This document shows, one piece after another, positions 1 through 35,819 of a DNA stretch of 64,000 nucleotides. Both the position numbers and the translations under genes were made by a program. The first letter of the stretch is position 1. The number at the start of each line of letters is the position of its first letter. The notes under the pieces were generated by a model. It did not search any database. It saw nothing but the letters and a program-made list of their open reading frames with translations, and was not told where the DNA came from. Where the stretch lies: positions 75,270,001-75,334,000 of the forward strand of contig OZ076409.1 in NCBI GenBank assembly GCA_964187785.1, written 5' to 3'. This stretch comes from Amphiscolops sp. MND2022 (Eukaryota).

Positions 1-742
1 TTGTGTTTAAAGGGTACAAATGTTTGGTGTTTTATGGATAACAGTACCTATTAGGTGTTTCGACGGTATGCAGTTGTGAACATAGTCATGAAACCTTGTG
101 GGGGGTAACGGTATATAGCACCGGAAGTCCAAAACGTTGGAGACAGGATAAGTTTTTTGGTTTTAAAACGTCTTTCGGCCTACTTTTGTCGACTATTATG
201 GTCTATTTTTGAAAAATAAAATTTTTCCATATAGTTTCAGAGACTCCGAAACCTCAACCAACATAACCGTTACCTTATGATAGCCTTTCAAGTTGGCCTG
301 GTGTCAACTTGGAAGGGCTATCCTTCAAAAATCATTAATCAAGTATGTTTTTGAGTATGTTTGTATTACTTTAGAATCAATTAGAGCTTAAAGGAAAGTT
401 TGCCAACGACAAAAACTATGTCGTGATGATTCCGTTATTAGAATACTTGTTAACAAAGTTTTAAAAACGTTGATTTTTTACATATCAAATGTGTCCTAAA
501 TGCCAGAAAACCTCTTTACCAAACAAATGGTATTGATTGAATTGTATATAACAGCTAATAAAAGTTCAAACTGAATATTACGTTTCATTTTGGAAGCTGA
601 AACGTCATTTTATAGTTTCATTAACGTCAACGCCACATACTTTACATCAACGCCCACCGTCCGTAGGCATGCCGAGGCATGCCTTTCGACGACGTATACC
701 AAATTCCTTTAACACAACACCCCCGAGCGCGGTAGCCGCTAG
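1..742 (+). mobile_element. Family A unit, 3' part (truncated by window edge)
   Basis: Matches the 3' part of 45636-47614. Carries the 44-bp hairpin (279-322), the TCAACGCC pair, the SphI palindrome (665-684) and a terminal CTAG. Confidence 0.7.
279..322 (+). other. Family A 44-bp subterminal bulged hairpin (representative)
   Basis: GATAGCCTTTCAAGTTGGC ctggt GTCAACTTGGAAGGGCTATC: 19 pairs including two G-T, with one bulged G. Also at ~2275, ~37332, ~39305, ~47151 and ~49147. Confidence 0.85.
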
Positions 743-2736
743 GTGCGGGGGGGTAACCCCAACTTTTTTCTTGGAGGAATCGGGTAGGGTCCTGATTCCG
801 AGTTCAGTGCCGCCAGCTATCGTTAAAAACCCATACCTTTTAAACCCGATCTCGGGAACTAACCACGCCCCTTCTTTAATTTTTTGGCCCCCACTCACTT
901 TTTGAGAGTAGATCGCCCCCCACTGGGTTCCAAGTTGGGCAAAAATGGAGGTCATGGGTAACGGGGACCGTTAAGGGGTAACTCAGGGGGTAAAATTTAT
1001 TTTTTGCGTCATATCTTTTCCCCCCGTGGATTTAGCGCTTCCGGTCAGCAGACAAAACCTCATGTACGTGATAAGGGGCCTCCGTAGGTCCAAACAAAAT
1101 TTTTCTATCATGCACCGTTACGGACTTGCCCCCCCGGCCCAACCGTTATTTTGCCGGAAATTGCCTTTTTTGACAGGAAAGGAGTCGTCTGAGCACGGAG
1201 TCGCTTGGTAATGTTTTGTAGTGCATCTGGAGACGTGTTGGGGGACATGTAGTTTGCCGACCCCAGTTTACCCCTCGGACGGGAAATGACCGTTATGTGA
1301 GTTTTAAAAATGCCCCCCTTCAATTTTCCCCGCAATTTCCGGTGTGAAGGAGTGGGAGTAGGGTGTCGGGTGCCATATATCAAAAGTAGGTTTAGACAAG
1401 GACCAACCGGAAACATGTGGTTTCGGACCCCCTGACCCAACCCGTTAGCCGCTATTAGGGTGATCGCCTCCTTTTTTTGCTGTTAAAACCGGAAAACGGG
1501 CATTGAGGGGTAAATATCTCGTGAACGCGTGGAGCAATCGTGTCCATCACTACTACAAGGTTTCATACCCATGATATGGTGCCTTCAGGGGGGCAAACAG
1601 ATTACCGCTATCTATCACCGTTACCGACTTGGCCCCCCAGCCTAACCGCTATGTGACCGGAAATTGCACTTTTTGAGCCCAAAGGGTCGATCCTAGCCGG
1701 GCAACGATAGGTAACATATTGTAGTACTCATTGAGACGAGTTGGGGGATCTAGTTTCAGTCACCCCCGTTACCCCTTGAGACCGGAAATGACCGTTATGT
1801 GAGTAGAATTGCAATTTTTATACCTTTTGAAGGGCATTTAGAAGCGGAAGGAATGGTAATAGGTGCTTGGACACTATATGATGTAATGGAGGTCGTGAGG
1901 AGAGCATTCGGAAGTAACCGTTACGTTGACCCCAAAGTCCCCCTGGTACCGTTAACAACCGGAAATGGCCAGATTTTGTGTTTGTAGGGTACAAATGTTT
2001 GGTATTTTATGGATAAAAGTACCTGGAAGGTGTTTTAAAGGCCTCCAGAAGTGAACATAGTCAAGAAACTTTGTGGGGGGTAACGGTATATAGCACCGGA
2101 AGTCCAAACCGTTAGTTACAGAATAGGTTTTTTGGTTTCAAAATGTCTTTAGGCGTAGTTTTGTGGGTGGAATCGTCATAATATCAACTAATACGGACTT
2201 TTTTCGGAAATAAAATTTTTTCACATTAGTTTCAGGGACCTCCAATGTTTCAGTCAACATAACCGTTACATTTTGATAGCCTTTCAAGTTGGCCTGGTGT
2301 CAACTTGGAAGGGCTATCCTTCTAAAATCGTTAATCAAGAGTGTTTTTGGGTAGGTATATGTTGCATTAGTACCAATTAGAGCTTCATCAACAGTTTGCC
2401 AACGGCAAAAACGATGTCGTGATAATTCCGTTATAAGAATATTAATTAACAAATTGTTTACAAAGTTGATTTTTTTCATTTAAAATGTGTCCTAATGCCA
2501 CCAAATTGAATAAAATAATAAATGGTATTGACTAAAACTAAATAACATTGAAAAAGAACATCAACATTTTTATTAGGTCTCATTATGGAAGCTGAAACCT
2601 CACGTTTTAACTTGATTAACGTCAACGCCACATACTTTACATCAACGCCCACCGTCTGTGGGCATGCCGAGGCATGCCCTTCGACGACGTATACCAAACA
2701 ACCTCCATATCTACACCCACCCGCGGTAGCAGCTAG
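743..2736 (+). mobile_element. Family A unit (1994 bp), putative non-autonomous cassette
   Basis: Starts GTGCGGGGGGGTAACCCC, has the GGGTAGGGTCC box 39 bp in, is rich in ACCGTTA/CCGGAAAT, and shares the 3' terminal block with family B. Mobility of family A is inferred from shared ends; no A-unit indel is seen. Confidence 0.7.
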
Positions 2737-3698
2737 GTGCCGGGATTTCTATTCGTTCGAGTATGTGGCGCGTGTGGGTAGGGCCCCTGGCGCGCTCTTT
2801 TATTTCGGGTACACCTACTCCAAATTCACGATGTGATTTCGACGATCTCGTAAACTAGCCACACGATTTGGCTGAAATTTGGCACACGTACCCCCCTCGG
2901 CACGGTGAAGATGATTTTCTACTGACGTTTTTCCCGCTAAACATTTTTTGTTGACCAAAATAACGGTTTTTGGGGTAAAATTTTCAACTTTTTTTAAATT
3001 TCATCTTATATCTCGCCACGGGTACACGCTAGCGCTTCCAAACCTTGCTGACGAAAGTTTGCAAACTGTCTCAGGAATGCTGTGTGAAATTTTCAGCTCA
3101 ATCGGACTTAAACTCGAGGAGATATAGCGTTTTTCCGGAGCGGGGGGGTTTCATTTTTCTAACGGTCCAGCTTATCTTTGCCATTTTTTCGAAAATGCAC
3201 TCGCCTAAAGGCCTCCCCTGGCCGGTTTTACTCCCAAAAAAACCATTTGGCCCTAAATACGGAGTTTCAGCGTTCTAGCATTCTCGGGCGAAAAGTTGTG
3301 GGACTTAGAAAATTTCAAAAATTTTCAAAAAAATTTTTTTTTGTTATTTGGGCCCCCAAAGTGGGGGAAAGGACCCCCCAACCATTAATTTGAGTGAATG
3401 CATGTGCAAAGCCCTTGTATAGAGGAGAAAAATGCCGTTTAGAACGTCTTTTTATCTTTACTCAACGTTGACTTATGACGTTTTGAAGGTGACCGTTAGA
3501 TATGGAAAATTGATGTTTTGAGTATTTATCTCATCTGAAAGCCATTGAGATACAACATGTTTTGCTCAAAACGGGTTTCATTGCAGTTTCGCTGTCTATT
3601 AACACCCTTTGGTGACTTTTGACATATTTTTGCTTTTATATAAAACCAATTTTTTGTGCATTTTTTCTTTTTTTTTCATCTAATATCTTGAAACAGTT

Positions 3699-3742
3699 GA
3701 GTACATTCCATCTCCCTTCCCGGGGGAGATGAGAATGTACTC
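3699..3742 (+). other. Family B 44-bp subterminal bulged hairpin (representative)
   Basis: GAGTACATTC CATCTCCC ttcccgg GGGAGATG A GAATGTACTC: arms are reverse complements with one unpaired A. Confidence 0.9.
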
Positions 3743-3907
3743 GCTAAAAGCCAAGAACTACGGCCAATACCTTCCCGAGCTATGCACTACAAATATTGCA
3801 TATGCATGCAGACCTTTTGATACATTTTTATCTTTGTAGATTGACTGGAAAAACCGAAAACTCTGTCCTGATTATACAAAGTTTCCTCACAACGACACAT
3901 GTTTACG

Positions 3908-3976
3908 TCAACGCCCCATAGTTCTTATCAACGCCCCCCGTCCGTGGGCATGCCGAGGCATGCCCTTCGACGACGT
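3908..3976 (+). other. 3' terminal block: 2x TCAACGCC, then GGGCATGCC-GA-GGCATGCCC palindrome, then TTCGACGACG (representative; in all intact A and B units)
   Basis: Nearly invariant across otherwise unalignable A and B bodies. The palindrome is at 3946-3965, and lies ~35-55 bp before the CTAG depending on the unit. Confidence 0.9.
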
Positions 3977-4006
3977 GCACCAAAATATATTCGAGCGCGG
4001 TAGCCG

Positions 4007-4013
4007 CTAGGTG
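4007..4013 (+). other. Junction / putative recombination or nicking site CTAG|GTG (representative of 47)
   Basis: CTRGGTG occurs at every intact unit boundary, and all four unit indels map to it. Confidence 0.85.
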
Positions 4014-7000
4014 CCGGGATTTCTATTCGATAAAGTATGTGGCGCGCCTTGGGTAGGGTCCCTTGCGCGCTCTTGGGTATGGTGTTCACCAGCTAGGAAA
4101 CAGGGGTCGATTTTTCGGGATCTCCTAAACTAGCCACACGATTTGGCTGAAATTTGGCACACGTACTCCCCTCGGCACGGTGAAGATGATTTCCTACTGA
4201 CATTTTTCCCGCAAAATTTTTTTTGTTGTCCAAAATAACGGTTTTTGGGGTAAAATTTTGAATTTTTTTTAAATTTTATCTTATATCTCGCCACGGGTTC
4301 ACGCTAGCGCTTCAAAACCCTGCTAAAGAAAGCTTGCAAACTGTCTCAGGAATGCGGTGTGAAATTTTCAGCTCAATCGGACTTAAACTCGGGGAGATAT
4401 AGAGTTTTTCCGGAGCGGGGGGGTTTCATTTTTCTAACGGTCCAGCTTATCTTTGCCATTTTTTCGAAAATGCACTCGCCTAAAGGCCTCCCCTGGCCGG
4501 TTTTATTCCCAGCAAAACCATTTGGCCCTAAATACGGAGTTTCAGCGTTCCAGCATTCCCGGGCGAAAAGTTGTGGGACTTAGAAAAGTTCAAAAAATTT
4601 CAAAAAAATTTTTTTCCGTTTTCCGCCCTCCCCCCCTAGGGGAAAAGACCCCCCAACCAGTAATTTGAGTGAATTCATGTGGAAAGGCCATGTTTAGAGG
4701 AGAAAAATACCGTTTAGATCGTCTTTTTATCTTAACTCAACGTTGACTTATGACGTTTTGAAGGTGATGTTTGGAGGTGTAAAGCACGTGAATAGTAAAC
4801 GTTATGAGTATTTATCTGATCTGAAAGCCATTGAGATGCAATATGGTTTGCTCAAAACGTAATTCATGGCAGTTTGGCAATCAATCAACACCCTTTGTTG
4901 TCGTTTGACAGACTTTTTTGTTGTTATAATAAAAAATTTTGTGTATTTATTCATTTTTTTCTCATCAAATAACTTGAAACAGTTGAGTACATTCCATCCC
5001 CCCCTTCCGGGGGAGATGAGAATGTACTCGCAAAAAGCACCGAACTACGACCCTTACCTTCCCGAGCTACGCAGTATAAGGACTACATATTGGTTCCGAC
5101 ATTTTCATAGAGTTAAATCTTGGTAATCTGTCTGGATATGCAGAAAAACCAGCACGTGCTTTTTTATACCAAGTTGCTCACAACGACAATTATTTTATAT
5201 CAACGCCCCCATATTTATCAACGCCCCCCGTCCGTGGGCATGCCGAGGCATGCCCTTCGACGACGTATACCAAGATATGTTCGAGCGCGTTAGCCTAGGT
5301 GGCCGTGTCTTTTCGACGTGCTTTTGCATTGAGGAGTGGGTAGGGCCCCGCGACGACCTAGAAGAATTGGATGCTCACCGAAACGTGCAGAATTCTACGA
5401 GATCTCATAGTTTGAGCCATACGATTTTTCTGAAATTTGGCATGTGGCCTGGAATTGGTGAGTAGGTAAAACGTGTAGAAGGTAATTTTTCCCAAATTCC
5501 ATTGTGAGAGGAGATATGGGCAAATAACGGACCCAAAATTGGGGAAAATGCACTTTTTTCAAGTTTGTCAGCCAATATCTCATTTCCAGGTGCCCGTAGC
5601 GTTCCGCACGTGGACGTCAATATTGCTCAACGCTGTTGGAAGAGTGCGTGGACAAATTTTGGTTCAAATCGGACTGAAACTTGGCGAGAAATTAACGGTT
5701 TTTTGGGCGTTTCCGGGGTAAATTTTTTAACGGTCCAGCTTATCTTTGCCATTTTTTCGAAAATGTACATGCCTAAAGGCCTCCCCCTGGCCGAATTTAC
5801 TCCCAGCAAACCCATTTGGCCCTAAATACGGAGTTTCAGCTGTCCAGCATTTCCGGGCGAAAAGTTGTGGGACTTTGAAAAATTTCAAAATTTTTCAAAA
5901 ATTTTTTTTTCCGTTTTCCGGGCCCCCCAATGAAGGGGAACGACCCCCCAACCAGTATTTTGAGTAATTTCATGAGGAAAGCCCATGTTTAGAGGAGAAA
6001 ATGCCGCTTAGAACGTCTTTTTATCTTAACTTGATGTTGACTTATGATCTTTTGAGTAGCGTATAACACGTGATCACAGTAGTGAAAACCCTAATTTTCA
6101 AAAATTTTCAAACCATAACGCATGAAAAGAACCTGGAAAAGGTTCCGATGGGTCAGTTGGGATGTCTGAAGCATGTGTACATTCCCGTAGTGTATAGCGG
6201 ATGTATTTGGGACTTATTAGAAATTGTGATATGTTTTATACAAGTCTTTGTTTCTCTTAGAATCTTATGCAGTTGAGTACATTCCATCTCCCTCTCAGGG
6301 GAGATGTGAATGTACGTTTGCCAAATGCCTTGTATATTTCACATCTTTGATGGATTCAAATAACTAAACAAGTGTGATTTGCGTTTGCCGAACCACTGCG
6401 ACAAAACATCCTAAATCTATAGCGAGTATGTATGGTTTTTGTCTTTAGTGTTTCGTCTTGTGTAGCCGACTTCCACATCCAAATATCAACGCCCGCCGTC
6501 CGTAGGCATGCCGAGGCATGCCTTTCGACGACGTATGCCAAATGCCCAATGCCACGCTGTCATTATCGCTAGGTGCCGGGATTTCTATTCGTTCGAGTAT
6601 GTGGCGCGTGTGGGTAGGGCCCCTGGCGCGCTCTTGTGTTTCGGGTTTTCCTACTCCTAAACCGCGTTCAGATTTTCGGGATCTCGTAAACTAGCCATAC
6701 GATTTGGCTGAAATTTGGCACACGTACCCCCCTCGGCACGGTGAAGATGATTCCCTACTGACGTTTTGCCCGCTAAACATTTTTTGTTGACCAAAATAAC
6801 GGTTTTTGGTGGAAAATTTTCAACTTTTTTTAAAATTCATCTTATATCTCGCCCCAGGTTTACGCTAGCGCTTCAAAACCTTGCTGACGAAAGTTTGCAA
6901 ACTGTCTCAGGAATGCGGTGTGAAATTTTCAGCTCAATCGGACTTAAACTCGAGGAGATATAGCGTTTTTCCGGAGCGGGGGGGTTTCATTTTTCTAACG

Positions 7001-7840
7001 GTCCAGCGTATCTTTGCCATTTTTTCGAAAATGCACTCGCCTAAAGGCCTCCCCTGGCCGGTTTTACTCCCAAAAAAACCATTTGGCCCTAAATACGGGG
7101 TTTCAGCGTTCTAGCATTTTCGGGCGAAAAGTTGTGGGACTTAGAATATTTCAAAAATTTTCAAAAAAATTTTTTTCCGTTATTTGGGCCCCCAATGTGG
7201 GGGAAAGGACCCCCCAACCAGTATTTTGAGTGAATGCATGTGCAAAGCGCTTGTTTAGAGGAGAAAAATGTCGTTTAGAACGTCTTTTTATCTTTACTCA
7301 ACGTTGACTTTTGTCGTTTTGAAGGTGACCGTTAGATATGGAAAATTGATGTTTTGAGTATTTATCTCATCTGAAAGCCATTGAGATACAACATGTTTTG
7401 CTCAAAACGTGTTTCATTGCAGTATCGCTGTCCATTAACACCCTTTGGTGACTTTTGACATATTTTTTTTATATATAATATCACTTTTTTGTGCATTTTT
7501 TCGTTTTTTTCTCATCTAATATCTTGAAACAGTTGAGTACATTCCATCTCCCTTCCCGGGGGAGATGAGAATGTACTCGCTAAAGGCCATGAACTACGGC
7601 CTATACCTTCCCGAGCTACGCACTACAATTATTGCATATGCATGCAGACCTTTTGATACATTTTTATCTTTATAGATTGACTGGACAAACTGAAAACTCT
7701 GTCCTGATTATACAAAGTTACCTCACAACGACACATGTTTACGTCAACGCTCCATACTTTACATCAACGCCCACCGTCCGTGGGCATGCCGAGGCATGCC
7801 CTTCGACGACGTATAGCCACTCAAACGCGGTAGCCGCTAG

Positions 7841-8899
7841 GTGGTCGGGTGTTTTACCTTTACAGAGTAGTGCGAGGCCGGGTAGGGTCCCGTGACGAGC
7901 TTGAAGAATAGCCTGCTAAAAATATACATGTTGGGGGGGGGGTCTACGGAGACGATCTCGAAAATGAACCGTTAGAATTTATTCAAACTTTGCATGCGGA
8001 CATAGAATCAAAATGTAAGAACTTTTTCCTACTGGCACTTTTCGCTCCATACCCTGTGACGGAAGTTATGAGCAAATGTATGTCGAAATCACCCATTTTT
8101 CGCATCTTTTCAGTCGCTGCTCCTCAGCCATTGGAGCCAATAGGCCGAAACTTTTTGTGTGAGGTACAAATGAAGTGGGCTACAAGATGGCCAAAAATTT
8201 TTGGCCAGGTCCTAATACATCGGGAAATATGATAGAAAATATACACCAAAAAAGGTGATTTTTTGACACTTTTTATCATGACTTCCGAAGTGCCCAATGG
8301 AATAGGTAGTGCCTATGGATAAAAATGAATGGTTTTATGTTTAATCGAAAGAGGAACAAATTTTGGTTTTTTTGGCCAAAAAAAAGTTCTACAAAAGTTC
8401 TACCAAAATTCGAAAAATTTAGAATTATTCCAAAAAAAAGGTTTTTTCGTCTTTTTTGATGTTTTTTCACATTTTGAGGTCAAAAACGAGGTACCCGAGC
8501 ACTTACACTGACTTTTTAGGGGAATTTGACACATTTAATTTTTATTTTTGGTTAATGATTACACTTTTAAAGTTTTAATCCCAAATTACTGCAATCTTTT
8601 CTCAGTTGTTGGAATTCTATGTTTGTTGGTAAATGACATGTAGAAAGATCGCCGATGTTCCGGGAGAACGCAAAGCGTTTCGGAGGAAGATTGGCGACAA
8701 ACGATAAAAGTCTGTGCAACTTATGTGCTTCCAATGAGGTGCTTGGTAGAATTATCAAGATGAAAAAATAACTTTTTTGAGGTAGTTTGTTGTGAAATGA
8801 AAACGATTAAAGTTTACAATTTTAAGTTGCACCAACTTCAGTTTCAATCAAGTATTGTCTGAATAGGCCTTACTGGTAGTTGGTACCTGCCTCCACTGG
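7841..8899 (+). mobile_element. Family C unit C1 (1059 bp)
   Basis: Starts GTGGTCGGG, has GGGTAGGGTCC 39 bp in, ends GCCTCCACTGG, and lacks the SphI block. Second copy at 55774-56833. Confidence 0.75.
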
Positions 8900-11800
8900 G
8901 TGGCCGGAAATTTTTTTTTCAGCAAAATCTTTGCCATTGGGGGAGGGGCCCCGGATGGCCAGTAGTACGGGATAGCTTCCTACCAAATCCAGGCGGAAAA
9001 AACGTGATTTCGGAAACTAGCCGTCAGAATTTGCTCAAATTTTGCATACGGCTTCCTATGACAATCCTAAGAACTAATCCCTACTGGCATTTTGCCCAAA
9101 AAACGCAAAAAGTTGGTCAAAATCTTAGTTTTTTGGTCAAAAAATGGCGTTTTTTCGAAAAAAATTTTTTTCAGAGACAATTACTCGTAACTGGTTCACC
9201 CAGCGCAAAAACGCCTAGCTGATTTATTGTTGGGCATTTCATGAGAAGTGCGTATACAAATTTTCGTCCAGATCGGAAACAAATTGACTAAGTATTAGCC
9301 GGAATTCGGACGCATTTTTTCGCAAATTTTTGAAAACCTAGTCTATCTCTGCCGTTTTTTGCCCAGATTTTTTTCCAGGTCCTCTCCTAAAGGCCTCCCC
9401 TGGCCGGTTTACTTCCCAGAAAAACCATTTGGCCCTAAATACGGAGTTTCAGCGTTCTAGCATTCCCGGGCGAAAAGATGTGGGACTTAGAAAAAATTCA
9501 AAATTTTTCAAAAAATTTTTTTTTCGTTTTCCGGCCCCCCAATGAAGGGGAACGACCCCCCAACGAGGATTTTTGGTGAATTCACGTGGAAAGGCCTTGT
9601 TTTGTGGAGCAAATTGCCGTTTAGAGCGACTTTTTATCTTAACTTGACGTTGACCTCTGTCGTTTTGAATTTGATATTAGTATGTGTTGAGCATGTGAAA
9701 AGTTGATGATTTCAGTTGTTCTCTCGTGTTCAAGCCATTGAGATACAAGCGGTAGTGATCAAAATGTGATTTATCGCAATTTGGTGGTGCTTTTGGTGTA
9801 TTTTGATTCTTTTAAATAAAAAGTTGTTCTTTATATATTTGGTGTATTGATTCAAATGAACAAGAAACAGTTGAGTACATTTCATCTCCCCCCTTGTGGG
9901 GGAGATGAGGATGTACCCGCTAAATGACACGCACAATGGCCCAATTTTATTTTTATGCGACGTTTTCTAGGCTTTTGCGCAAGCCCACTAAAATTTAGAC
10001 TGGTTTCCTTTTCTTTTACTCCAAAATTTTCCGTACTAACCACCTTACGCACCACCAGCTCAACGTAACATCTGTAACGTCAACGCCACACACTCTCACT
10101 AACGCCCACCGTCCGTGGGCATGCCGAGGCATGCCCTTCGACGACGTATGCCAAATAGCGCCACAGGGCGCAAACTTGTCCGCTAGGTGCCGGGATTTCC
10201 ATTCGATAAGGAATTCTGCGCGTGTGGGTAGGGCCCCTGGCGCGCTCCTGTGTTTTCGGTTTTCCTACTCCTAAATAGACCCCCTGAATTCCGGGATCTC
10301 CCAAACTATCCATACGATTTGGCTGAAATTTGGCACACGTACCCCCCTCGGCACGGTGAAGATGATTTCCTACTGACGTTTTTCCCGCTAAACATTTTTT
10401 GTTGACCAAAATAACGGTTTTTGGGGTAAAATTTTGAACTTTTTTTAAATTTCATCTTATATCTCGCCACGGGTACACGCTAGCGCTTCCAAACCTTGCT
10501 GACGAAAGTTTGCAAACTGTCTCAGGAATGCTGTGTGAAATTTTCAGCTCAATCGGACTTAAACTCGAGGAGATATAGCGTTTTCCCGGAGCGGGGGGGT
10601 TTCAATTTTCTAACGGTCCAGCTTATCTTTGCCATTTTTTCGAAAATGCACTCGCCTAAAGGCCTCCCCTGGCCGGTTTTATTCCCAACAAAACCATTTG
10701 GCCCTAAATACGGAGTTTCAGCGTTCCAGCATTCCCGGGCGAAAAGTTGTGGGACTTAGAAAAGTTCAAAAATTTTCAAAAAAAAATTTTTCCGTTATTT
10801 GGGCCCTCAAAGTGGGGGAAAAGACCCCCCAACCAGTAAAGCAAGTGAATGCATGTGGAAAGCCCTTGTTTAGACGAGAAAAATGCCGTCTAGAACGTCT
10901 TTTTATCTTAACTTGACATTGACTTTTGTCGTTTTGAAGGTGACCGTTAGATACGGAAAATTGATGTTTTGAGTATTTATCCCATCTGAAAGCCATTGAG
11001 ATACAACATGTTTTGCTCAAAACGTGTTTCATTGCAGTTTCGCTGTCCATTATCACCCTTTGGTGTCTTTTCACGTAATTTTCGTTTCTATAATAACAAT
11101 TTTTTTGTGTATTTATTCATTTTATTCTCATCAAATAACTTGAAACAGTTGAGTACATTCCATCTCCCTTCCCGGGGGAGATGAGAATGTACTCGCTAAA
11201 GGTCAGGAACTACGGTCTATATCTTCCACAACACAAATGGGATTGCAAATGGTTTCAGTTTGTCGCAGAAAACTTCTTTTTGCCCTCTGTGACTCGACAA
11301 AATGAACGTTTCTTACTTACTTTGAAACTCAGCATACCACAACTCATCTCTAACGTCAGCGCCCCCCTACTTGCATCAACGCCCACCGTCCGTGGGCATG
11401 CCGAGGCATGCCCTTCGACGACGTATACCAAGATATACCTGGAGCGCGGTAGCCGCTAGGTGGCCGGAAATTTTTTTTTTCATCAAAATCTTTGCCATTG
11501 GGGGAGGGGCCCCGGATGGCCAGTAGTACGGGATAGCTTCCTACCAAATCCAGATGGAAAAAACGTGATTTCGGAAACTAGCCGTCAGAATTTGCTCAAA
11601 TTTTGCATACGGCTTCCTATGACAATCCTAAGAACTAATCCCTACTAGCATTTTGCCCAAAAAACGCAAAAAGTTGGTCAAAATCTTAGTTTTTTGGTCG
11701 AAAAATGGCGTTTTTTCGAAAAAATTTTTTTTCAGAGACAATTACTCGTAACTGGTTCACCCAGCGCAAAAACGCCTAGCTGATTTATTGTTGAGGACTT

Positions 11801-14800
11801 CATGAGGAGTGCGTATACAAATTTTCGTCCAAATCGGATAAAAGTTGATTGAGAAATAACTGAAAATTTGAGGCATTTTTTTGGAAATTTTTGAAAACCT
11901 AGTCTATCTCTGCCGTTTTTTGCCCAGATTTTTTTCCAGGTCCTCTCCTAAAGGCCTCCCCTGGCCGGTTTACTTCCCAGAAAAACCATTTGGCCCTAAA
12001 TACGGAGTTTCAGCGTTCTAGCATTCCCGGGCGAAAAGATGTGGGACTTAGAAAAAATTCAAAATTTTTCAAAAATTTTTTTTTCGTTTTCCGGCCCCCC
12101 AATGAAGGGGAACGACCCCCCAACGAGGATTTTTGGTGAATTCACGTGGAAAGGCCTTGTTTTGTGGAGCAAATTGCCGTTTAGAGCGACTTTTTATCTT
12201 AACTTGACGTTGACCTCTGTCGTTTTGAATTTGATATTAGTATGTGTTGAGCATGTGAAAAGTTGATGATTTCAGTTGCTCTCTCGTGTTCAAGCCATTG
12301 AGATACAAGCGGTAGTGATCAAAATGTGATTTATCGCAATTTGGTGGTGCTTTTGGTGTATTTTGATTCTTTTAAATAAAAAGTTGTTCTTTATATATTT
12401 GGTGTATTGATTCAAATGAACAAGAAACAGTTGAGTACATTTCATCTCCCCCCTTGTGGGGGAGATGAGGATGTACCCTCTAAATGACACGCACAATGGC
12501 CCAATTTTATTTTTATGCGACGTTTTCTAGGCTTTTGCGCAAGCCCACTAAAATTTAGACTGGTTTCCTTTTCTTTTACTCCAAAATTTTCCGTACTAAC
12601 CACCTTACCCACCACCAGCTCAACGTAACATCTGTAACGTCAACGCCACACACTCTCACTAACGCCCACCGTCCGTGGGCATGCCGAGGCATGCCCTTCG
12701 ACGACGTATGCCAAATAGCGCCACAGGGCGCCCAATTTTGTCTAGGTGCCGGGATTTCCATTCGATAAGGAATTCTGCGCGTGTGGGTAGGGCCCCTGGC
12801 GCGCTCCTGTGTTTTCGGTTTTCCTACTCCAAATTCACACCCCAGTTATCTCCGATCTCGTAAACTATCCATACGATTTGGCTGAAATTTGGCACACGTA
12901 CCCCCCTCGGCACGGTGAAGATGATTTCCTACTGACGTTTTTCCCGCTAAACATTTTTTGTTGACCAAAATAACGGTTTTTGGGGTAAAATTTTCAACTT
13001 TTTTTAAATTTTATCTTATATCTCGCCACGGGTACACGCTAGCGCTTCCAAACCTTGCTGACGAAAGTTTGCAAACTGTCTCAGGACTGCTGTGTGAAAT
13101 TTTCAGCTCAATCGGACTTAAACTCGAGGAGATATAGCGTTTTTCCGGAGCGGGGGGGTTTCATTTTTCTAACGGTCCAGCTTATCTTTGCCATTTTTTC
13201 GAAAATGCACTCGCCTAAAGGCCTCCCCTGGCCGGTTTTATTCCCAGCAAAACCATTTGGCCCTAAATACGGAGTTTCAGCGTTCCAGCATTCCCGGGCG
13301 AAAAGTTGTGGGACTTAGAAAATTTCAAAAATTTTCAAAAATTTTTTTTCCGTTATTTGGGCCCCCAAAGTGGGGGAAAAGACCCCCCAACCAGTAAAGC
13401 AAGTGAATGCATGTGCAAAGCCCTTGTTTAGAGGAGAAAAATGCCGTTTAGAACGTCTTTTTATCTTGGCTCAACGTTGACTTATGACGTTTTGAAGGTG
13501 ATGTTTGGAGGTGTAAATCACGTGAATAGTAAACGTTATGAGTATTTATCTGATCTGAAAGCCATTGAGATGCAATATGGTTTGCTCAAAACGTAATTCA
13601 TGGCAGTTTGGCAATCAATCAACACCCTTTGTTGTCGTTTGACATACTTTTTTGTTGTTATAATAAAAATTTTGTGTATTTGTTCATTTTTTTCTCATCA
13701 AATAACTTGAAACAGTTGAGTACATTCCATCCCCCCTTCCGGGGGAGATGAGAATGTACTCGCAAAAAGCAGCGAATTACGGCCCTTACCTTCCCGAGCT
13801 ACGCAGTATAAGGATTACATATTGGTTCCGACATTTTCATAGAGTTAAATCTTGGTAATCTGTCTGGATATGCAGAAAAACCAGCACGTGCTTTTTTATA
13901 CCAAGTTGCTTACAACGACAATTATTTTATATCAACGCCCCCATATTTATCAACGCCCCCCGTCAGTGGGCATGCCGAGGCATGCCCTTCGACGACGTAT
14001 ACCAAGATATACATCGAGCGCGTTAGCCTAGGTGCCGGTGTTTTTTTACACAATGGCGGATGTTGCGCGGTTGGGGAGGGTCCCTGACGCGCTCCCGGGA
14101 TTTCGGATTTTTTAACCTTTACGTACCCATCAAAAATTTTGGGATCTCGAAAACTAGCCGTACGATTTGGCTGAAATTTGGCACACGTACCCCCCTCGGC
14201 ACGGTGAAGATGATTCCCTACTGACGTTTTGCTCGCTAAACATTTTTTGTTGACCAAAATAACGGTTTTTGGGGTAAATTTTTCAACTTTTTTTAAATTT
14301 TATCTTATATCTCGCCACGGGTTTACGCTAGCGCTTCCAAACCTTGCTGACGAAACCTTGCAAACTGTCTTAGGAATGCGGTGTGAAATTTTCAGCTCAA
14401 TCGGACTCAAACTCGGGGAGATATAGCGTTTTTCCGGAGCGGGGGGGTTTCATTTTTCTAACGGTCCAGCTTATCTTTGCCATTTTTTCGAAAATGCACT
14501 CGCCTAAAAGCCTCCCCTGGCCGGTTTTATTCCCAGCAAAACCATTTGGCCCTAAATACGGAGTTTCAGCGTTCCAGCATTTCCGGGCGAAAAGTTGTGG
14601 GACTTAGAAAATTTCAAAAATTTTCAAAAAATTTTTTTTCCGTTATTTGGGCCCCCAAAGTGGGGGAAAAGACCCCCCAACCAGTAAAGCAAGTGAATGC
14701 ATGTGCAAAGCCCTTGTTTGGACGAGAAAAATTCTGTTTAGAACGTCTTTTTATCTTGGCTCAACGTTGACTTATGACGTTTTGAAGGTGATGTTTGGAG

Positions 14801-17800
14801 GTGTAAAGCAAGTGAATAGTAAACGTTATGAGTATTTATCTGATCTGAAAGCCATTGAGATGCAATATGGTTTGCTCAAAACGTAATTCATTGCAGTTTG
14901 GCAATCAATCAACACCCTTTGTTGTCGTTTGACATACTTTTTTGTTGTTATAATAAAAAATTTTGTGTATTTATTCATTTTTTTCTCATCAAATAACTTG
15001 GAACAGTTGAGTACATTCCATCCCCCCCTTCCGGGGGAGATGAGAATGTACTCGCAAAAAGCACCGAACTACGGCCCTTACCTTCCCGAGCTACGCAGTA
15101 TAAGGATTACATATTGGTTCCGACGTTTTCATAGAGTTATATCTTGGTAATCTGTCTGGATATGCCGAAAAATCAGCACGTGCCTTTTAATACCAAGTTG
15201 CTCACAACGACAATTATTTTATATCAACGCCCCCATATTTATCAACGCCCCCCGTCCGTGGGCATGCCGAGGCATGCCCTTCGACGACCCGCACCAAAAT
15301 ATGCGTTAGCGCGGTAGCTGCTAGGTGGCCGGAAATTTTTTTTTCATCAAAATCTTTGCCATTGGGGGAGGGGCCCCGGATGGCCAGTAGTACGGGATAG
15401 CTTCCTACCAAATCCAGATGGAAAAAACGTGATTTTGGAAACTAGCCGTCAGAATTTGCTCAAATTTTGCATACGGCTTCCTATAACAATCCTAAGAACT
15501 AATCCCTACTGGCATTTTGCCCAAAAAACGCAAAAAGTTGGTCATAATCTTAGTTTTTTGGTCAAAAAATGGCGTTTTTTCGAAAAATTTTTTTTTCAGA
15601 GACAATTACTCGTAACTGGTTCACCCAGCGCAAAAACGCCTAGCTGATTTATTGTTGGGCACTTCATGAGGAGTGCGTATACAAATTTTCGTCCAGATCG
15701 GAAAAAAAATGACTAAGTATTAGCCGGAATTCGGACGCATTTTTTCGCAAATTTTTGAAAACCTAGTCTATCTCTGCCGTTTTTTGCCCAGATTTTTTTC
15801 TAGACCCTCTCCTAAAGGCCTCCCCTGGCCGGATTACCTCTCAGCAAAACCATTTGGCCCTAAATACGAAGTTTCAGCGTTCTAGCATTCTCGGGCGAAA
15901 AGTTGTGGGACTTAGAAAAATTTTTTTGAAAACGCAAAATGTGTAAAGTCAACTTCAGGCCTCCCAAAGTCAAGGAACTTCCACACAACTAGTATTGCAA
16001 GTGAATGCATGTGGAAAGTACTCGGATAGACGAGAAAAATGAGCTATTATAAATCTCTGTAGCTTAACCTGACGTTGACTTATGACAATTTTAGTGTGAG
16101 CTTGCTATGTGAGAAAAAAATTCAAAATTGGAAATCGAAGCTAAGTCTCATCCAAAACTCATCGGAACACGTTCAATCCATCCCAGAGCGGTTTAATTCC
16201 AGCTATATAATGCAGCAACACTATTCAAGACCATTTGATCCACTTACATTAGTTTTGACACCGTATTATTCATCCGAGAGCACAAAACAGTTGAGTACAT
16301 TCCATCTCCCTTTCGGGGGAGATGAGAATGTACTCGCTAAAGTCCAGGTACTACAGCCCATATTTGCTTTTATGCGACGCTCTTATGCTAGTGCGCATAC
16401 TTTTTAATCGTTTAACTGAATTTTCTTCTGTCTGCACTTTGACTTTGACTTGACATATAGTGAACGTTTTGTCTTACAACTTACAAATGAGTAACGTCAA
16501 CGCCCCATCCTTGCATCAACGCCCACCGTCCGTGGGCATGCCGAGGCATGCCCTTCGACGACGTATGCCAAGATATATCCCAAGCGCGGTAGCAGCTAGG
16601 TGCCGGGATTTCTATTCGATAAAGTATGTGGCGCGTGTGGGTAGGGTCCCTGGCGCGCTCTTGGGTATGGTGTTCACCAGCTAGGAAATAGGGGTCGATT
16701 TTTCGGGATCTCCTAAACTAGCCACACGATTTGGCTGAAATTTGGCACACGTACTCCCCTCGGCACGGTGAAGATGATTTCCTACTGACGTTTTTCCCGC
16801 AAAATTTTTTTTGTTGTCCAAAATAACGGTTTTTGGGGTGAAATTTTGATTTTTTTTTAAATTTTATCTTATATCTCGCCACCGGTTTACGCTAGCGCTT
16901 CAAAACCCTGCTAAAGAAAGCTTGCAAACTGTCTCAGGAATGCTGTGTGAAAATTTCAGCTCAATCGGACTTAAACTCAGGGAGATATAGCGTTTTTCCG
17001 GAGCGGGGGGGTTTCATTTTTCTAACGGTCCAGCTTATCTTAGCCATTTTTTCGAAAATGTACTCGCCTAAAGACCTCCCCTGGCCGGTTTTATTCCCAG
17101 CAAAACCATTTGGCCCTAAATACGGAGTTTCAGCGTTCCAGCATTCCCGGGCGAAAAGTTGTGGGACTTAGAAAAGTTCAAAAATTTTCAAAAAATTTTT
17201 TTTCCGTTTTCCGCCCTCCCCCCCGAGGGGAAAAGACCCCCAACCAGTAATTTGAGTGAATTCATGTGGAAAGGCCATGTTTAGAGGAGAAAAATCTCGT
17301 TTAAATCGTCTTTTTATCTTTATTCAACGTTGACTTATGACGTTTTAAAGGTGATGTTTGGAGGTGTGAAGCACGTGAAAAGTAAACGTTATGAGTATTT
17401 ATCTGATCTGAAAGCCATTGAGATGCAACCTGTATTGCTCAAAACGTAATTCATATCAGTTTGGTAGTCAATCAACACCCTTTGTTGTCATTTGACATCT
17501 TTTTTTGTTGATATAAGAAAAAATTTCGTGTATTTATTCATTTTTTTCTCATCAAATAACTTGAAACAGTTGAGTACATTCCATCCCCCCTTCACGGGGG
17601 AGATGAGAATGTACTCGCAAAAAGCCCCGAACTACGGCCCTTACCTTCCTGAGCTACGCAGTATAAAGATTGCATATTGGTTCCGACATTTTCATAGAGT
17701 TATATCTTGGTAATCTGTCTGGGTATGCAGAAAAACCAGCACGTGCTTTTTTATACCAAGTTGCTCACAACGACATTTATTTTATATCAACGCCCCCATA

Positions 17801-20800
17801 TTTATCAACGCCCCCCGTCCGTGGGCATGCCGAGGCATGCCCTTCGACGACGTATACCAAGATATGTTCAAGCGCGTTAGCCTAGGTGCCGGGATTTCCA
17901 TTCGATAAGGAATTCTGCGCGTGTGGGTAGGGCCCCTGGCGCGCTCCTGTGTTTTGGGTTTTCCTACTCTAAATTCACACATCAGTTATCTCGGATCTCG
18001 AAAACTAGCCACACGATTTGGCTAAAATTTGGCACACAGCTCCGTTGGAACATTGTAAGAACAAATCCCTACTGACGTTTTGCCCGCTAAACATTTTTTG
18101 TTGGTCAAAAATGCGATTTTCCGACAAAATTTTTGACTTTTTTTTCTTTTTCAACTCATATCTCGCCACAGGGCTACGCTAGCGCTTTGCAACCTATGAT
18201 CCTTTTTTGTAGGGCATTGCATGTAGAACACGTATGCCAAATTTGGTGGCGATCGGACTTGAACTCAGGGAGATATAACGATTTTTTAGGTGCATTTTTT
18301 GACATTTTTTGCAATTGCTGATTTATCTTTGCCGTTTTTTGCCCAGATTTTTTTTGAGACACTCTCCTAAAGACCTCCCCTGGCCGGTTTACCTCCCAGC
18401 AAAACCATTTGGCCCTAAATACGAAGTTTCAGCGTTCTAGCATTCCCGGGCGAAAAGTTGTGGGCTTAGAATAATTTTTTGGAAACGCAAAATGTGTAAA
18501 GTCAACTTCAGGCCTCCCAAAGTCAAGGAACTTCCACACAACTAGTATTGCAAGTGGATGCATGTGGAAAGTACTGGGATAGACGAGAAAAATGAGCTAT
18601 AGAACGACTCTGTAGCTTAACTTGACGTTGACTTATGATGTTTTGAGTGTGTGCTTACTAAGGGGTCCGAAATTGAAAATTTTTAAAGAAAATTAATATC
18701 GTTAAAAATTCATCGGAATGCCTGCAATATACAGTAGAGCGTGTTCAATTGTAGCTGACTAATGCATCAACGCTGTTCAAGGTCTTTCAACTCAGTTTCA
18801 AATTTTTTTACACTGTATTATCCATCCGAGAGTTCGAAACAGTTGAGTACATTCCATCTCCCTCCCGAGGGAGATGAGAATGTACTCGCTAAAGTACAGA
18901 TACCACGACCCATATTTGTTTCTCTGCGACGCAAACATTTGCTAGTGCACATAAATAGTGATCTTTTGACTGAATTCTGTATTTACATTGACGTGACATA
19001 TGCTGAACGTTCGGTTCTTACAACATACACATGACAAACGTCAACGCCACATACTGTTACCAACGCCCACCGTCCGTGGGCATGCCGAGGCATGCCCTTC
19101 GACGACGTATGCCAAATACCTTTGACCGACGCGCACTCTCCCGCTAGGTGCCGGGATTTCTATTCGATAAAGTATGTGGCGCGTGTGGGTAGGGTCCCTG
19201 GCGCGCTCTTGGGTATGGTGTTCACCAGCTAGGAAATAGGGGTCGATTTTTCGGGATCTCGTAAACTAGCCACACGATTTGGCTGAAATTTGGCACACGT
19301 ACTCCCCTCGGCACGGTGAAGATGATTTCCTACTGACGTTTTTCCCGCAAAATTTTTTTTGTTGTCCAAAATAACGGTTTTTGGGGTAAAATTTTGAATT
19401 TTTTTTAAATTTTATCTTATATCTCGCCACCGGTTTAGGCTAGCGCTTCAAAACCCTGCTAAAGAAAGCTTGCAAACTGTCTCAGGAATGCGGTGTGAAA
19501 TTTTCAGCTCAATCGGACTTAAACTCGGGGAGATATAGCGTTTTTCCGGAGCGGGGGGGTTTCATTTTTCTAACGGTCCAGCTTATCTTAGCCATTTTTT
19601 CGAAAATGTACTCGCCTAAAGACCTCCCCTGGCCGGTTTTATTCCCAGCAAAACCATTTGGCCCTAAATACGGAGTTTCAGCGTTCCAGCATTCCCGGGC
19701 GAAAAGTTGTGGGACTTAGAAAAATTCAAAAATTTTCAAAAAAAAATTTTTCCGTTTTCCGCCCTCCCCCCCTAGGGGAAAAGACCCCCCAACCAGTAAT
19801 TTGAGTGAATTCATGTGGAAAGGCCATGTTTAGACGAAAAAATTGCCGTTTAGAACGTCTTTATATCTCAACCTGACATTGACTTATGAAGCTTTAAAGG
19901 TGATGTTTGGACGTGTGAAGCATGTAAAAAAGGAATTTTTTGATTTTATTTCATCAGAAAGTCATTGAATTACACGCTGTGAAGCCCAGAGCGTGGTTTC
20001 TAATAGTTTGGTATCGTTTAAACGCATTTTGGTGTCTTTTTACTCTGTTTAAAAAACTTTTCTCCTGAAAATTAATAAATTTTGATTACTTTTCTTACTT
20101 TCCATTAATTTTTTTTTCTTATATTTTTACTTGAAACAGTTGAGTACATTCCATCTCCCTTCCCGGGGGAGATGAGAATGTACTCGCAAAAAGCCGCGAA
20201 CTACGGCCCATACCTTCCCGAGATACGCAGTATAAAGATAACATAATGGTCCAGACATTTTAATGGAGTTGTATCTTGGTAATATGTCTGGATTTGCAGA
20301 AAAATCAGCACGTGCCATTTTATACCAAGTTGCTCGCAACGACAATTAATTTAAATCAACGCCCCCCACAAAAATCAACGCCCCCCGTCCGTGGGCATGC
20401 CGAGGCATGCCCTTCGACGACGTGCACCAAAATATGCCCCGAGCGCGTTAGCAGCTAGGTGCCGGGATTTCTATTCGTTCGAGTATGTGGCGCGTGTGGG
20501 TAGGGCCCCTGGCGCGCTCTTTTATTTCGGGTACACCTACTCCAAATTCACGATGTGATTTCGACGATCTCGTAAACTAGCCATACGATTTGGCTGAAAT
20601 TTGGCACACGTACCCCCCTCGGCACGGTGAAGATGATTCCCTACTGACGTTTTGCCCGCTAAACATTTTTTGTTGACCAAAATAACGGTTTTTGGTGGAA
20701 AATTTTTGATTTTTTTTAAAATTCATCTTATATCTCGCCACGGGTTTACGCTAGCGCTTCAAAACCTTGCTGACGAAAGTTTGCAAACTGTCTCAGGAAT

Positions 20801-23800
20801 GCGGTGTGAAATTTTCAGCTCAATCGGACTTAAACTCGAGGAGATATAGCGTTTTTCCGGAGCGGGGGGGTTTCATTTTTCTAACGGTCCAGCTTATCTT
20901 TGCCATTTTTTCGAAAATGCACTCGCCTAAAGGCCTCCCCTGGCCGGTTTTATTCCCAGCAAAACCATTTGGCCCTAAATACGGAGTTTCAGCGTTCTAG
21001 CATTCTCGGGCGAAAAGTTGTGGGACTTAGAAAATTCAAAAATTTTCAAAAAAATTTTTTTTTGTTATTTGGGCCCCCAAAGTGGGGGAAAGGACCCCCC
21101 AACCATTAATTTGAGTGAATGCATGTGCAAAGCCCTTGTATAGAGGAGAAAAATGCCGTTTAGAACGTCTTTTTATCTTTACTCAACATTGACTTATGAC
21201 GTTTTGAAGGTGACCGTTAGAAATGGAAAATTGATGTTTTGAGTATTTATCTCATCTGAAAGCCATTGAGATACAACATGTTTTGCTCAAAACGGGTTTC
21301 ATTGCAGTTTCGCTGTCTATTAACACCCTTTGGTGACTTTTGACATATTTTTGCTTTTATATAAAACCAATTTTTTGTGCATTTTTTCTTTTTTTTTCAT
21401 CTAATATCTTGAAACAGTTGAGTACATTCCATCTCCCTTCCCGGGGGAGATGAGAATGTACTCGCTAAAAGCCAAGAACTACGGCCAAAACCTTCCCGAG
21501 CTACGCACTACAAATATTGCATATGCATGCAGACCTTTTGATACATTTTTATCTTTGTAGATTGACTGGAAAAACCGAAAACTATGTCCTGATTATACAA
21601 AGTTTCCTCACAACGACACATGTTTACGTCAACGCCCCATAGTTCTTATCAACGCCCCCCGTCCGTGGGCATGCCGTGGCATGCCCTTCGACGACGTGCA
21701 CCAAAATATATTCGAGCGCGGTAGCCGCTAGGTGCCGGTGTTTTTTTACACAATGGGGGAAGTTGCGCGTGTGGGGAGGGTCCCTGACGCGCTCCCGGGA
21801 TTTCGGATTTTTTAACCTTTACGTACCCATCAAAAATTTTGGGATCTCGAAAACTAGCCGTACGATTTGGCTGAAATTTGGCACACGTACCCCCCTCGGC
21901 ACGGTGAAGATGATTCCCTACTGACGTTTTGCTCGCTAAACATTTTTTGTTGACCAAAATAACGGTTTTTGGGGTAAAATTTTCAACTTTTTTTAAATTT
22001 CATCTTATATCTCGCCACAGGTGCACGCTAGCGCTTCCAAACCTTGCTGACGAAAGGTCGCAAACTGTCTCAGGAATGCTGTGTGAAATTTTCAGCTCAA
22101 TCGGACTTAAACTCGAGGAGATATAGCGTTTTTCCGCAGCGGGGGGGTTTCATTTTTCTAACGGTCCAGCTTATCTTTGCCATTTTTTCAAAAATGCACT
22201 CGCCTAAAGGCCTCCCCTGGCCGGTTTTATTCCCAGCAAAACCATTTGGCCCTAAATACGGAGTTTCAGCGTTCCAGCATTCCCGGGCGAAAAGTTGTGG
22301 GACTTAGAATTTTTCAAAAATTTTCAAAAATTTTTTTTTCCGTTATTTGGGCCCCCAAAGTGGGGGAAAAGACCCCCCAACCAGTAAAGCAAGTGAATGC
22401 ATGTGGAAAGCCCTTGTTTAGACGAGAAAAATGGCGTTTAGAACGTTTTTTTATCGTAACTTGACATTGACTTTTGTCGTTTTGAAGGTGACCGTTAGAT
22501 ACGGAAAATTGATGTTTTGAGTGTTTATCCCATCTGAAAGCCATTGAGATACAACATGTTTTGCTCAAAACGTGTTTCATTGCAGTTTCGCTGTCCATTA
22601 ACACCCTTTGGTGTCTTTTGACGTAATTTTCTTTTCTATAACAACAATTTCTTTGTGTATTTATTCATTTTTTTCTCATCAAATAACTTGAAACAGTTGA
22701 GTACATTCCATCTCCCTTCCCGGGGGAGATGAGAATGTACTCGCTAAAGGTCAGGAACTACGGTCTATATCTTCCACAACACAAAAGAGATTGCAAATTG
22801 TTTCAGTTTGTCGCAGAAAACTTCTTTTTGCACTCTGTGACTCGACAAAGTGAACGTTTCTTACTTACTTTGAATCTCACCATACCACAACTCATCTCTA
22901 ACGTCAACGCCCCCCACACACATCAACGCCCCCCGTCCGTGGGCATGCCGAGGCATGCCCTTCGACGACGTATAGCAAAATATATTCGAACGCGGTAGCG
23001 GCTAGGTGCCGGGATTTCTATTCGTTCGAGTATGTGGCGCGTGTGGGTAGGGCCCCTGGCGCGCTCTTGTGTTTGGGGGTTTCCTACTTCTAAATCACGT
23101 TCAGATTTCCGGGATCTCGTAAACTATCCATACGATTTGGCTGAAATTTGGCACACGTACCCCCCTCGGCACGGTGAAGATGATTTCCTACTGACGTTTT
23201 TCCCGCTAAACATTTTTTGTTGACCAAAATAACGGTTTTTGGTGGAAAATTTTTGATTTTTTTTAAATTTTATCTTATATCTCGCCACGGGTCCACGCTA
23301 GCGCTTCCAAACCTTGCTGACGAAACCTAGCGAACTGTCTCAGGAATGCTGTGTGAAATTTTCAGCTCAATCGGACTTAAACTCGGGGAGATATAGCGTT
23401 TTTCCGGAGCGGGGGGGTTTCATTTTTCTAACGGTCCAGCTTATCTTTGCCATTTTTTCGAAAATGCACTCGCCTAAAGGCCTCCCCTGGCCGGTTTTAC
23501 TCCCAAAAAAACCATTTGGCCCTAAATACGGAGTTTCAGCGTTCTAGCATTCCGGGGCGAAAAGTTGTGGTACTTAGTAAATTTCAAAAATTTTCAAATT
23601 TTTTTTTTCGTTATTTGGGCCCCCAAAGTGGGGGAAAAGACCCCCCAACCAGTAATTTGAGTGAATTCATGTGGAAAGGCCATGTTTAGCGGCGAAAAAT
23701 GCTTTTTAGATCGTCTTTTTATTTTAACCTGTTGTTGACTTATGTTGTTTTGAAGGTGATGTTTGGATGTGTGAAGCATGTGAAAAGGTAATTTTTTGTG

Positions 23801-35800: not shown

Positions 35801-35819
35801 CCATAACGCGTTAGCCTAG
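8900..35819 (+). mobile_element. Run of 21 family B units (1262-1311 bp) of intermixed subfamilies
   Basis: 5' types: B1 (GTGCCGG..., most units), B2 (GTGGCCGTGTC; 26864, 28149), B3 (GTGGCCGGAAATT; 8900, 11460, 15325), B4 (body CACAGCTCCGTTGGAAC; 17886, 33271). Unit 11460-12745 is precisely absent in copy 2. Confidence 0.8.

Follow-up and report, generated by a model that had tools for sequence, protein, structure and literature searches.

What joins a series of unlike DNA units at one and the same point, and what is the short G-rich box that follows each of these joins at an almost constant distance? The question is raised by the window, by which we mean the whole stretch of 64,000 nt that was analysed (1..64000). 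In it, non-coding units that differ from one another and belong to several lineages follow each other head to tail, 46 of them complete (1047–2714 bp) and two partial, with no spacers and in a single orientation (+ strand). The array continues past the window on both sides, both of its ends lying outside the 64,000 nt. An earlier note on this DNA had described the box in three families of units and read it as a protein-binding site, about four helical turns from a crossover. The answer that we favour, with a probability of roughly 0.55, is that the units are non-autonomous rolling-circle elements (HUH, Helitron-like) in which a hairpin at the left end would fix the position of the nick and would also be the only target in the array.

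Organisation of the array

Units of lineage A are about 1.98 kb long (for example the non-coding unit at 743..2736), and those of lineages B, B2, D and E are about 1.28 kb and roughly 70–86% alike in parts. Two C types of about 1.05 kb have only short stretches in common with the remaining lineages. Within the first part of the window these are represented by a B unit at 2737..4010, a B2 unit at 5299..6572, the C1 unit at 7841..8899 (1.06 kb) and a D unit at 8900..10186. There are thus more families than the three first described, and the last of these units, originally grouped with C1 under the name C2, is closer in its body to B than to C1. Unit lengths are tightly clustered, with 38 of the 46 falling between 1262 and 1311 bp though their bodies diverge by up to about 30%, and this narrow range may reflect a size constraint.

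Families follow one another at random along the array (20 same-family neighbours versus 16.7, p 0.12), and so do the left-end types, of which there are at least six. Neighbouring units are never identical; those of equal length have at least 22 differences. The random order and the absence of identical neighbours fit events that happened one at a time and not concatemers, and a simple rolling-circle concatemer is ruled out by adjacent units never being identical. Only one of the 46 units has a join away from a junction, a chimera at 37795–40508 that consists of A sequence to about position 1786 and then of B sequence from about position 368.

Some internal features of the units were also seen. 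The A units contain an internal duplication of 238 nt (1069–1302 and 1572–1804), its copies about 502 nt apart and 73.5% identical, as well as a long hairpin in their interior (279–322, 2275–2318), some 420 nt away from the right end. A different long internal hairpin is found in B, D and E units about 270 nt before the right end (3699–3742 in the window), and it is kept in a diverged metagenome contig, L002 (about 566–607), while the surrounding sequence diverges.

Whole-unit differences between near-identical blocks

A higher-order duplication on the + strand gives the array two blocks, at 1..17352 and at 46873..64000, and the comparison of the two reveals where units come and go. The blocks have 2 differences in 14,792 shared bases, plus four whole-unit indels. 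Ten unit pairs compared between them have 0, 0, 0, 0, 1, 0, 0, 0, 0 and 1 differences, and the partial block ends match at 742/742 and 753/753 positions. Two units are present in the first block only, the B unit at 2737..4010 and a D unit at 11460..12745, and two in the second only, a B unit at 52171..53458 and a second C-type unit at 54727..55773. In that order, a filled site and its empty counterpart have only 24, 7, 9 and 7 letters in common; the intersection of the four is G|GTG, and the crossover falls somewhere within GGTG. Target duplication is absent at the unit ends. Since the blocks are nearly identical and nevertheless differ by four whole units, the junction is a recently used site of precise insertion or excision. 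The two blocks could be alleles joined in the assembly, but even then the indels would remain genuine polymorphisms.

One way to account for such a locus is a satellite shuffled by unequal exchange or gene conversion, with the box as a host-protein site kept across diverged monomers, much as the CENP-B box is kept in alpha satellite. The 47-kb higher-order duplication, the mosaic units, the A/B chimera at 37795 and the clustered unit lengths all agree with this, and together they indicate that ordinary recombination does act in the array. The indels themselves are harder to explain in this way. In all four of them the left neighbour keeps its own tail, whereas exchange through the shared right-end module would be expected to swap this variable tail, and the letters shared at the sites are few, as given above. 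In the case of the unit at 54727..55773, the right end even differs from that of its left neighbour. Furthermore, 15 tails and 8 leaders (the stretches between junction and box) combine in 27 ways, all joined at one point. Satellite shuffling is therefore quite unlikely to explain the junctions.

The junction and the box

Junctions were defined independently of the box, as CTRGGTG (CTRG|GTG, the first at 739..745), and 47 were found on the + strand, 44 with CTAG and 3 with CTGG. The box pattern GGGKAGGGNCC also has 47 matches in the window, all on the + strand, where 0.22 are expected and 100 shuffles gave at most 4; allowing one mismatch produced no further copies in the window. Every box is paired with one junction and none of the 47 junctions is without a box, the distance between the two being +39 in 32 cases, +40 in nine, +41 in five and +37 in one. 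The first box lies at 782..793 and the last at 63287. Positions and offsets given earlier for part of the set were right, with boxes at 782, 2776, 5338 and 7880 at +39, those at 4051 and 8940 at +40 and the one at 14073 at +41. The box is thus downstream of the crossover, inside the left end of each unit, and the leader between them (743..781 in the first A unit) has a near-fixed length of 37–41 nt and a variable sequence. Relative to the junction, the standard deviation of the box position is 0.76 nt, against 4.7 nt for a palindrome on the upstream side. With this spacing, and with the four whole-unit indels mapping to the junction, the proposal of a signal held at a set distance from an actual crossover point is supported.

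An information profile was built from one representative per lineage, six from the window and L002. Across these seven lineages the box carries 1.80 bits on average, compared with 0.54 for the preceding 30 nt and 0.55 for the sequence after it, so the profile has the expected peak, and a flat logo, the outcome named in advance as speaking against the claim, was not seen. The sequences around the box had been called unrelated, but this does not hold throughout. The leaders are diverged, with an ungapped identity of 6–20 of 34 positions (20/34 between the two C types), but a second motif is common to all seven lineages at +98 to +114 (846–870, 2843–2885 and equivalent positions in the window), so that a single ancestor of all the left ends is probable. 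This motif region may resemble the core of insect DINE-1/HINE-type non-autonomous elements.

The exact point at which one unit gives way to the next can be narrowed from the letters of the junction. The R of CTRG goes with the upstream unit, and this, together with the 27 combinations of tails and leaders, places the switch point within GGTG. Four letters are not the whole target, as none of the 198 other GGTG sites on the + strand is a unit boundary. The left-end signature can be written as GGTG, then 34–38 nt, then GGGKAGGGNCCY.

Two smaller observations concern the same region. The 4-mer KAGG is present in the loop of the box and also across the CTAG and CGAG junctions, which may mean that one protein pocket is used twice, or may be chance. 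A small hairpin of a G-run and a C-run is found in the leader of A (748–760), of the unit at 54727 (54734–54746) and of L002 (891–902), and is not clear in B or D.

A junction of this kind could also be the core at which a double-strand site-specific recombinase makes its crossover, with the box as an arm-type site about 3.7 helical turns away. The enzyme would be either of the tyrosine type (as in Cryptons and integrons) or of the serine type with a GG core. Precise whole-unit indels without duplication within a 4-nt core, a fixed distance from junction to box and a mixed, cassette-like order of units are all in line with such an enzyme. Clean excision would also come naturally to it, whereas for the Helitron Helraiser empty donor sites were undetected, according to the accessible part of PMC5876387. 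On the other hand, the surroundings of the junction show no evident dyad symmetry and no conserved inverted arms; columns −10 to −5 and +3 to +10 have low information, and a search for the arms of tyrosine-recombinase att or integron attC sites found low information on both sides of GGTG. The complement of the junction occurs seven times on the + strand, each time inside a D unit, so there is no general attC-like pairing. A duplex site also does not predict the complementary stems and G-A tandems described below, which are specific to each lineage, and no recombinase gene was found among the 18 open reading frames of the window or in the collection scans. A double-strand recombinase thus seems rather doubtful.

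A predicted hairpin at the left end

The box can be extended by one base. In 47/47 copies its 12 nt read GGG-KAGGGN-CCY, that is, a 3-bp apical stem and a 6-nt loop. The consensus GGG(T/G)AGGGNCC of the earlier note is therefore correct as far as it goes and one base short, as the final Y completes the stem. Below the box, the arms vary from lineage to lineage yet remain self-complementary. In the A unit, the full hairpin (774..801) has a 9-bp stem with one G-T pair and a GA/GA tandem at its foot. The arms GGAATC/GATTCC of the A unit at 743 are replaced by GGATTC/GAATCC in the one at 35820, a two-sided change, and arms of the GCGCG type are found in B, GCCAT/ATGGC in D and a new stem, GGCGC/GCGCC, in L002. 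GA stands opposite GA at the foot of the stem in A, B2, both C types and L002 (13 of the 47 units of the window), and in the B2 unit at 5299..6572 the lower stem is mostly two such tandems. The stems of B and D (34 of the 47) are without it.

When arms were swapped among eight end types, the true pairing ranked first of 40,320 with DNA energies and second with RNA energies. With a simple pair score it ranked 60 if G-A tandems were left out and 2 if they were included. In 10/10 types the predicted fold of the + strand is lower in energy than that of the − strand, which is partly expected from the G-richness of the + strand. RNAalifold, applied to 11 ends, predicted the apical 3-bp stem alone and no two-sided change; it misses the lower stem because the stems are out of register. 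For B2, C1 and the unit at 54727, standard energies give weak folds, and the true arm is outdone by some of the foreign ones; the lower stems of these three rely on G-A pairs.

G-T pairs and tandem G-A pairs require a single strand that folds back on itself; a duplex palindrome does not form them. The earlier picture of a duplex arm counted in helical turns is consequently not supported, as the flanks of the box co-vary as a hairpin stem with just these pairs. Rather than a plain duplex site, the box probably forms the conserved tip of a hairpin that is predicted for the single strand. It is the best-conserved signal of the left end in an array that was recently active. As to geminivirus origins, in which the nick site is in the hairpin loop, a loop of this function is ruled out here by a switch point 39 nt away.

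Folding alone is equally compatible with a hairpin in single-stranded DNA and in RNA. The signal could thus act in a transcript that starts at about the junction G, with a protein bound to the hexaloop and a step through RNA or a cDNA circle. The rank of 2 of 40,320 with RNA energies is consistent with this, as are the G at the beginning of the units and the fact that G-U and G-A pairs are common in RNA. What such a pathway leaves unexplained is that 47/47 left ends are complete and that poly(A) tails, target duplications and terminal redundancy are all absent; Rfam also has no hit at gathering score. We consider it unlikely that the hairpin acts as RNA. The complete left ends and the lack of tail and target duplication rule out a non-LTR retroposon as well.

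The right end

In A, B, D and E units the right end is formed by a module (for example 627..700 on the + strand) of CAACGC repeats followed by an imperfect hairpin of 34 nt with a palindromic core of 18 nt. This core is present in 44 copies in the window and starts 58–77 nt before the junction. It is absent from the three C-type units, which finish in CTGG; in C1, for example, a different right end of this kind is found together with a box as elsewhere. Canonical Helitrons (HLE1) carry a short hairpin 10–12 nt from the 3' end; in the array, a 5-bp GC hairpin lies 14–16 nt before the junction in 3 of 30 distinct tails, and most tails fold weakly. The left end is therefore strict, being kept in every lineage, while the right end is loose, varying in position (sd 4.7 nt) and replaced altogether in C.

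If we take the p53-family response element to be two RRRCWWGYYY half-sites, the right-end palindrome (665–684 and 43 further copies; 812–831 in L002) fits this consensus, with one mismatch in 43 of the 44 copies. A two-sided change from G-C to A-T is seen in four copies and in L002. The palindrome could bind a host transcription factor, act as a terminator hairpin, or do both.

Related sequences

A scan of metagenomes with the right-end palindrome gave three matches, L001 to L003, and the same scan gave none in viral contigs and none in prokaryote genomes. L001 and L003 were dropped, as their match is confined to the 23–24 nt of the palindrome in bacterial-looking DNA. L002 is a diverged contig of 1172 nt that was retrieved by the palindrome and not by the box, and it has the right-end module, a CGAG|GTG junction and a box at +38. 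In longer matches it is 69–77% alike to B and D bodies. The internal hairpin pattern had 0 and 0 matches in two collections scanned. Single hits in viral contigs (L004–L010, four with the junction plus box and three with the hairpin pattern) are attributed to chance, having no BLAST similarity to the window. A blastn search of 2600–4100 against phage and plasmid collections gave no match. Neither a transposase gene nor an autonomous partner with the same ends, such as one encoding Rep-helicase, was found in the collections scanned, L002 being the sole relative.

Within the window, the 18 open reading frames have no Pfam match above cut-off and one sub-threshold hit, no tRNA was found, and Rfam reported nothing at gathering score, with six weak sub-threshold hits in 700–12000. 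Together with its long A/T runs, this lack of genes hints at a eukaryotic source of the DNA. One sequencing run, X1, matches the window with a share of 0.13, and no RNA run is among the matches listed. On 5200–10300 this run has 20 records; the eight listed are of 103–314 nt and low depth, and among them the C1 unit and most of D are without cover. An X1 contig of 151 nt spans the junction at 6573 with 12 differences, and the eight of these differences that are listed miss junction and box.

Comparison with known systems

Some candidates can be set aside from the ends alone. Group II introns start with GUGYG, end in AY and contain a catalytic domain V; they are ruled out by units that end in AG or GG and by the lack of an Rfam hit. 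Tandem spliceosomal introns (GT...AG) are ruled out by the three units that end in GG.

For the mobile elements discussed in the following, the comparison extends to the accessible parts of the papers cited. The array units behave like a non-autonomous Helitron but fit neither HLE1 nor HLE2 as defined there (PMC11417382, PMC4067079). Similar to HLE1, they have a CTRR-like 3' end (CTAG in 44 and CTGG in 3 of 47, L002 departing from this with CGAG). They share with Helraiser the absence of target duplication, precise right-to-left junctions of head-to-tail copies, and ends of unequal strictness, the left being essential and the right looser. Helraiser depends on its left end and not on its right, the determinants at its ends lie within 40 nt (PMC4778049), and its transposase precisely forms and cleaves right-to-left junctions on the top strand (PMC5876387). 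The differences are also several. The 5' end is GTG or TG and not TC, and no cut within GGTG gives TC at any of the 47 junctions; the units carry a hairpin with a conserved loop at +39; the palindrome starts 58–77 nt from the end, whereas in Helraiser the hairpin is described as 11 nt upstream of the end; all four empty sites have G|G, not A|T, at the junction; and adjacent units are never identical. Helraiser is moreover reported to target AT dinucleotides broadly and not its own ends (PMC4778049).

HLE2 elements (Helitron2, Helentron/DINE-1/HINE) are similar in having a left-end hairpin, but the array units have neither their inverted repeats of 11–18 nt nor a TT target; in a search for terminal or subterminal inverted repeats, the longest match in 10/10 units was 8–10 nt, compared with a shuffle mean of 8.4–9.4. 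The nearest precedents in the accessible literature are found elsewhere. FoHeli3-5, termed 'HLE2-reverse', start with TG like the array units, one FoHeli4 was inserted 2 bp upstream of the 5' end of another, and three tandem copies were seen in Metarhizium (PMC5148889). As described there, such targeting of ends is a rare event, in contrast to 47/47 junctions in the array. The second precedent is that of the telomere-targeted Helitrons of Paramecium (PMC13085455), which likewise insert at a specific target in a single orientation, with several alternative right ends. The text available describes them as flanked by telomeric repeats, while the array units have no spacer.

Single-strand chemistry with a hairpin is also known from the IS200/IS605 and REP/TnpA-REP systems, which resemble the array in their strand-specific subterminal hairpins and in cleavage away from the hairpin; the HUH TnpA proteins recognise the loop of a hairpin and irregularities in its stem (PMC8266576, from the part available). 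These systems differ in that the array units are 1–2 kb long and eukaryotic-looking, with no matches in the prokaryote, phage and plasmid collections scanned. A guide tetranucleotide was looked for, and no invariant 4-mer precedes the stem across the seven lineages; a REP-type GTAG guide is ruled out, as GTAG is in the loop and varies to GGAG. Replitrons have a left end that inserts right after RG in one orientation (PMC10288648, in the part available), comparable to the RG|GTG of the array. The 6-bp terminal direct repeat, fuzzy right ends, duplications and right-end hairpin described for Replitron-1 in the same source are not found in the array. Direct repeats of more than 10 nt between the ends are absent from 10 units, and GGTG could be a 4-nt repeat. 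Tandem arrays of the transposable elements R1, hobo and P also consist of full elements placed head to tail and can expand by unequal exchange (PMC5932611). In the accessible account each consists of one family, with target duplication in double-insertion junctions, while this array is mixed and has no duplication. No description of a mixed, junction-targeted array was found in the literature searched, which excluded Repbase and most subscription papers, and the element family may already be catalogued.

How the array may grow

The rolling-circle proposal favoured here is based on the asymmetry between a strict left and a loose right end, on the cleavage of junctions by Helraiser and on the reading of hairpin loops by HUH proteins. 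An HUH transposase, probably of Helitron type and encoded elsewhere, would bind the folded left end and nick within GGTG, about 39 nt upstream of the box. Donor and target would presumably be recognised through one and the same left-end signal, and the right end of an incoming unit or circle would be joined immediately before an existing left end. Each such event would preserve all junctions and add one, so that a mixed array could grow unit by unit; run in reverse, the reaction would cleanly excise a unit. As a terminator the right end would be looser, consisting of CKRG whether or not the palindrome module is present. If the cut were at GG|TG, the 5' end would be T, as in the Helitron groups described in the accessible parts of PMC11417382 and PMC5148889.

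A bolder version of this scheme, which we put forward tentatively, is that the locus is an integron-like cassette array in a eukaryote, working with single-strand chemistry. An HUH enzyme with the hairpin-marked junction of its own elements as sole target would then precisely add and remove whole units faster than point mutations build up, and unrelated passengers would share a left-end 'address' at one locus.

Meaning for rolling-circle elements and satellites

Eukaryotic rolling-circle transposons have been described as inserting at 2-nt targets, and to our knowledge the recognition of their left end is poorly defined. The diverged lineages of this array show what is kept, namely the loop bases, the 3-bp stem and the distance to the cut, and also what is free, the sequence of leader and lower stem; in this sense they are ready-made mutants. 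Were the junction the only target, the units would form a eukaryotic element family that stays within its own array. They would then also offer a way for a transposon to become a complex satellite without target duplication, as well as a candidate precise integrase. If the integron-like reading is true, the array would be a self-limiting safe harbour served by a natural, scarless site-specific integrase.
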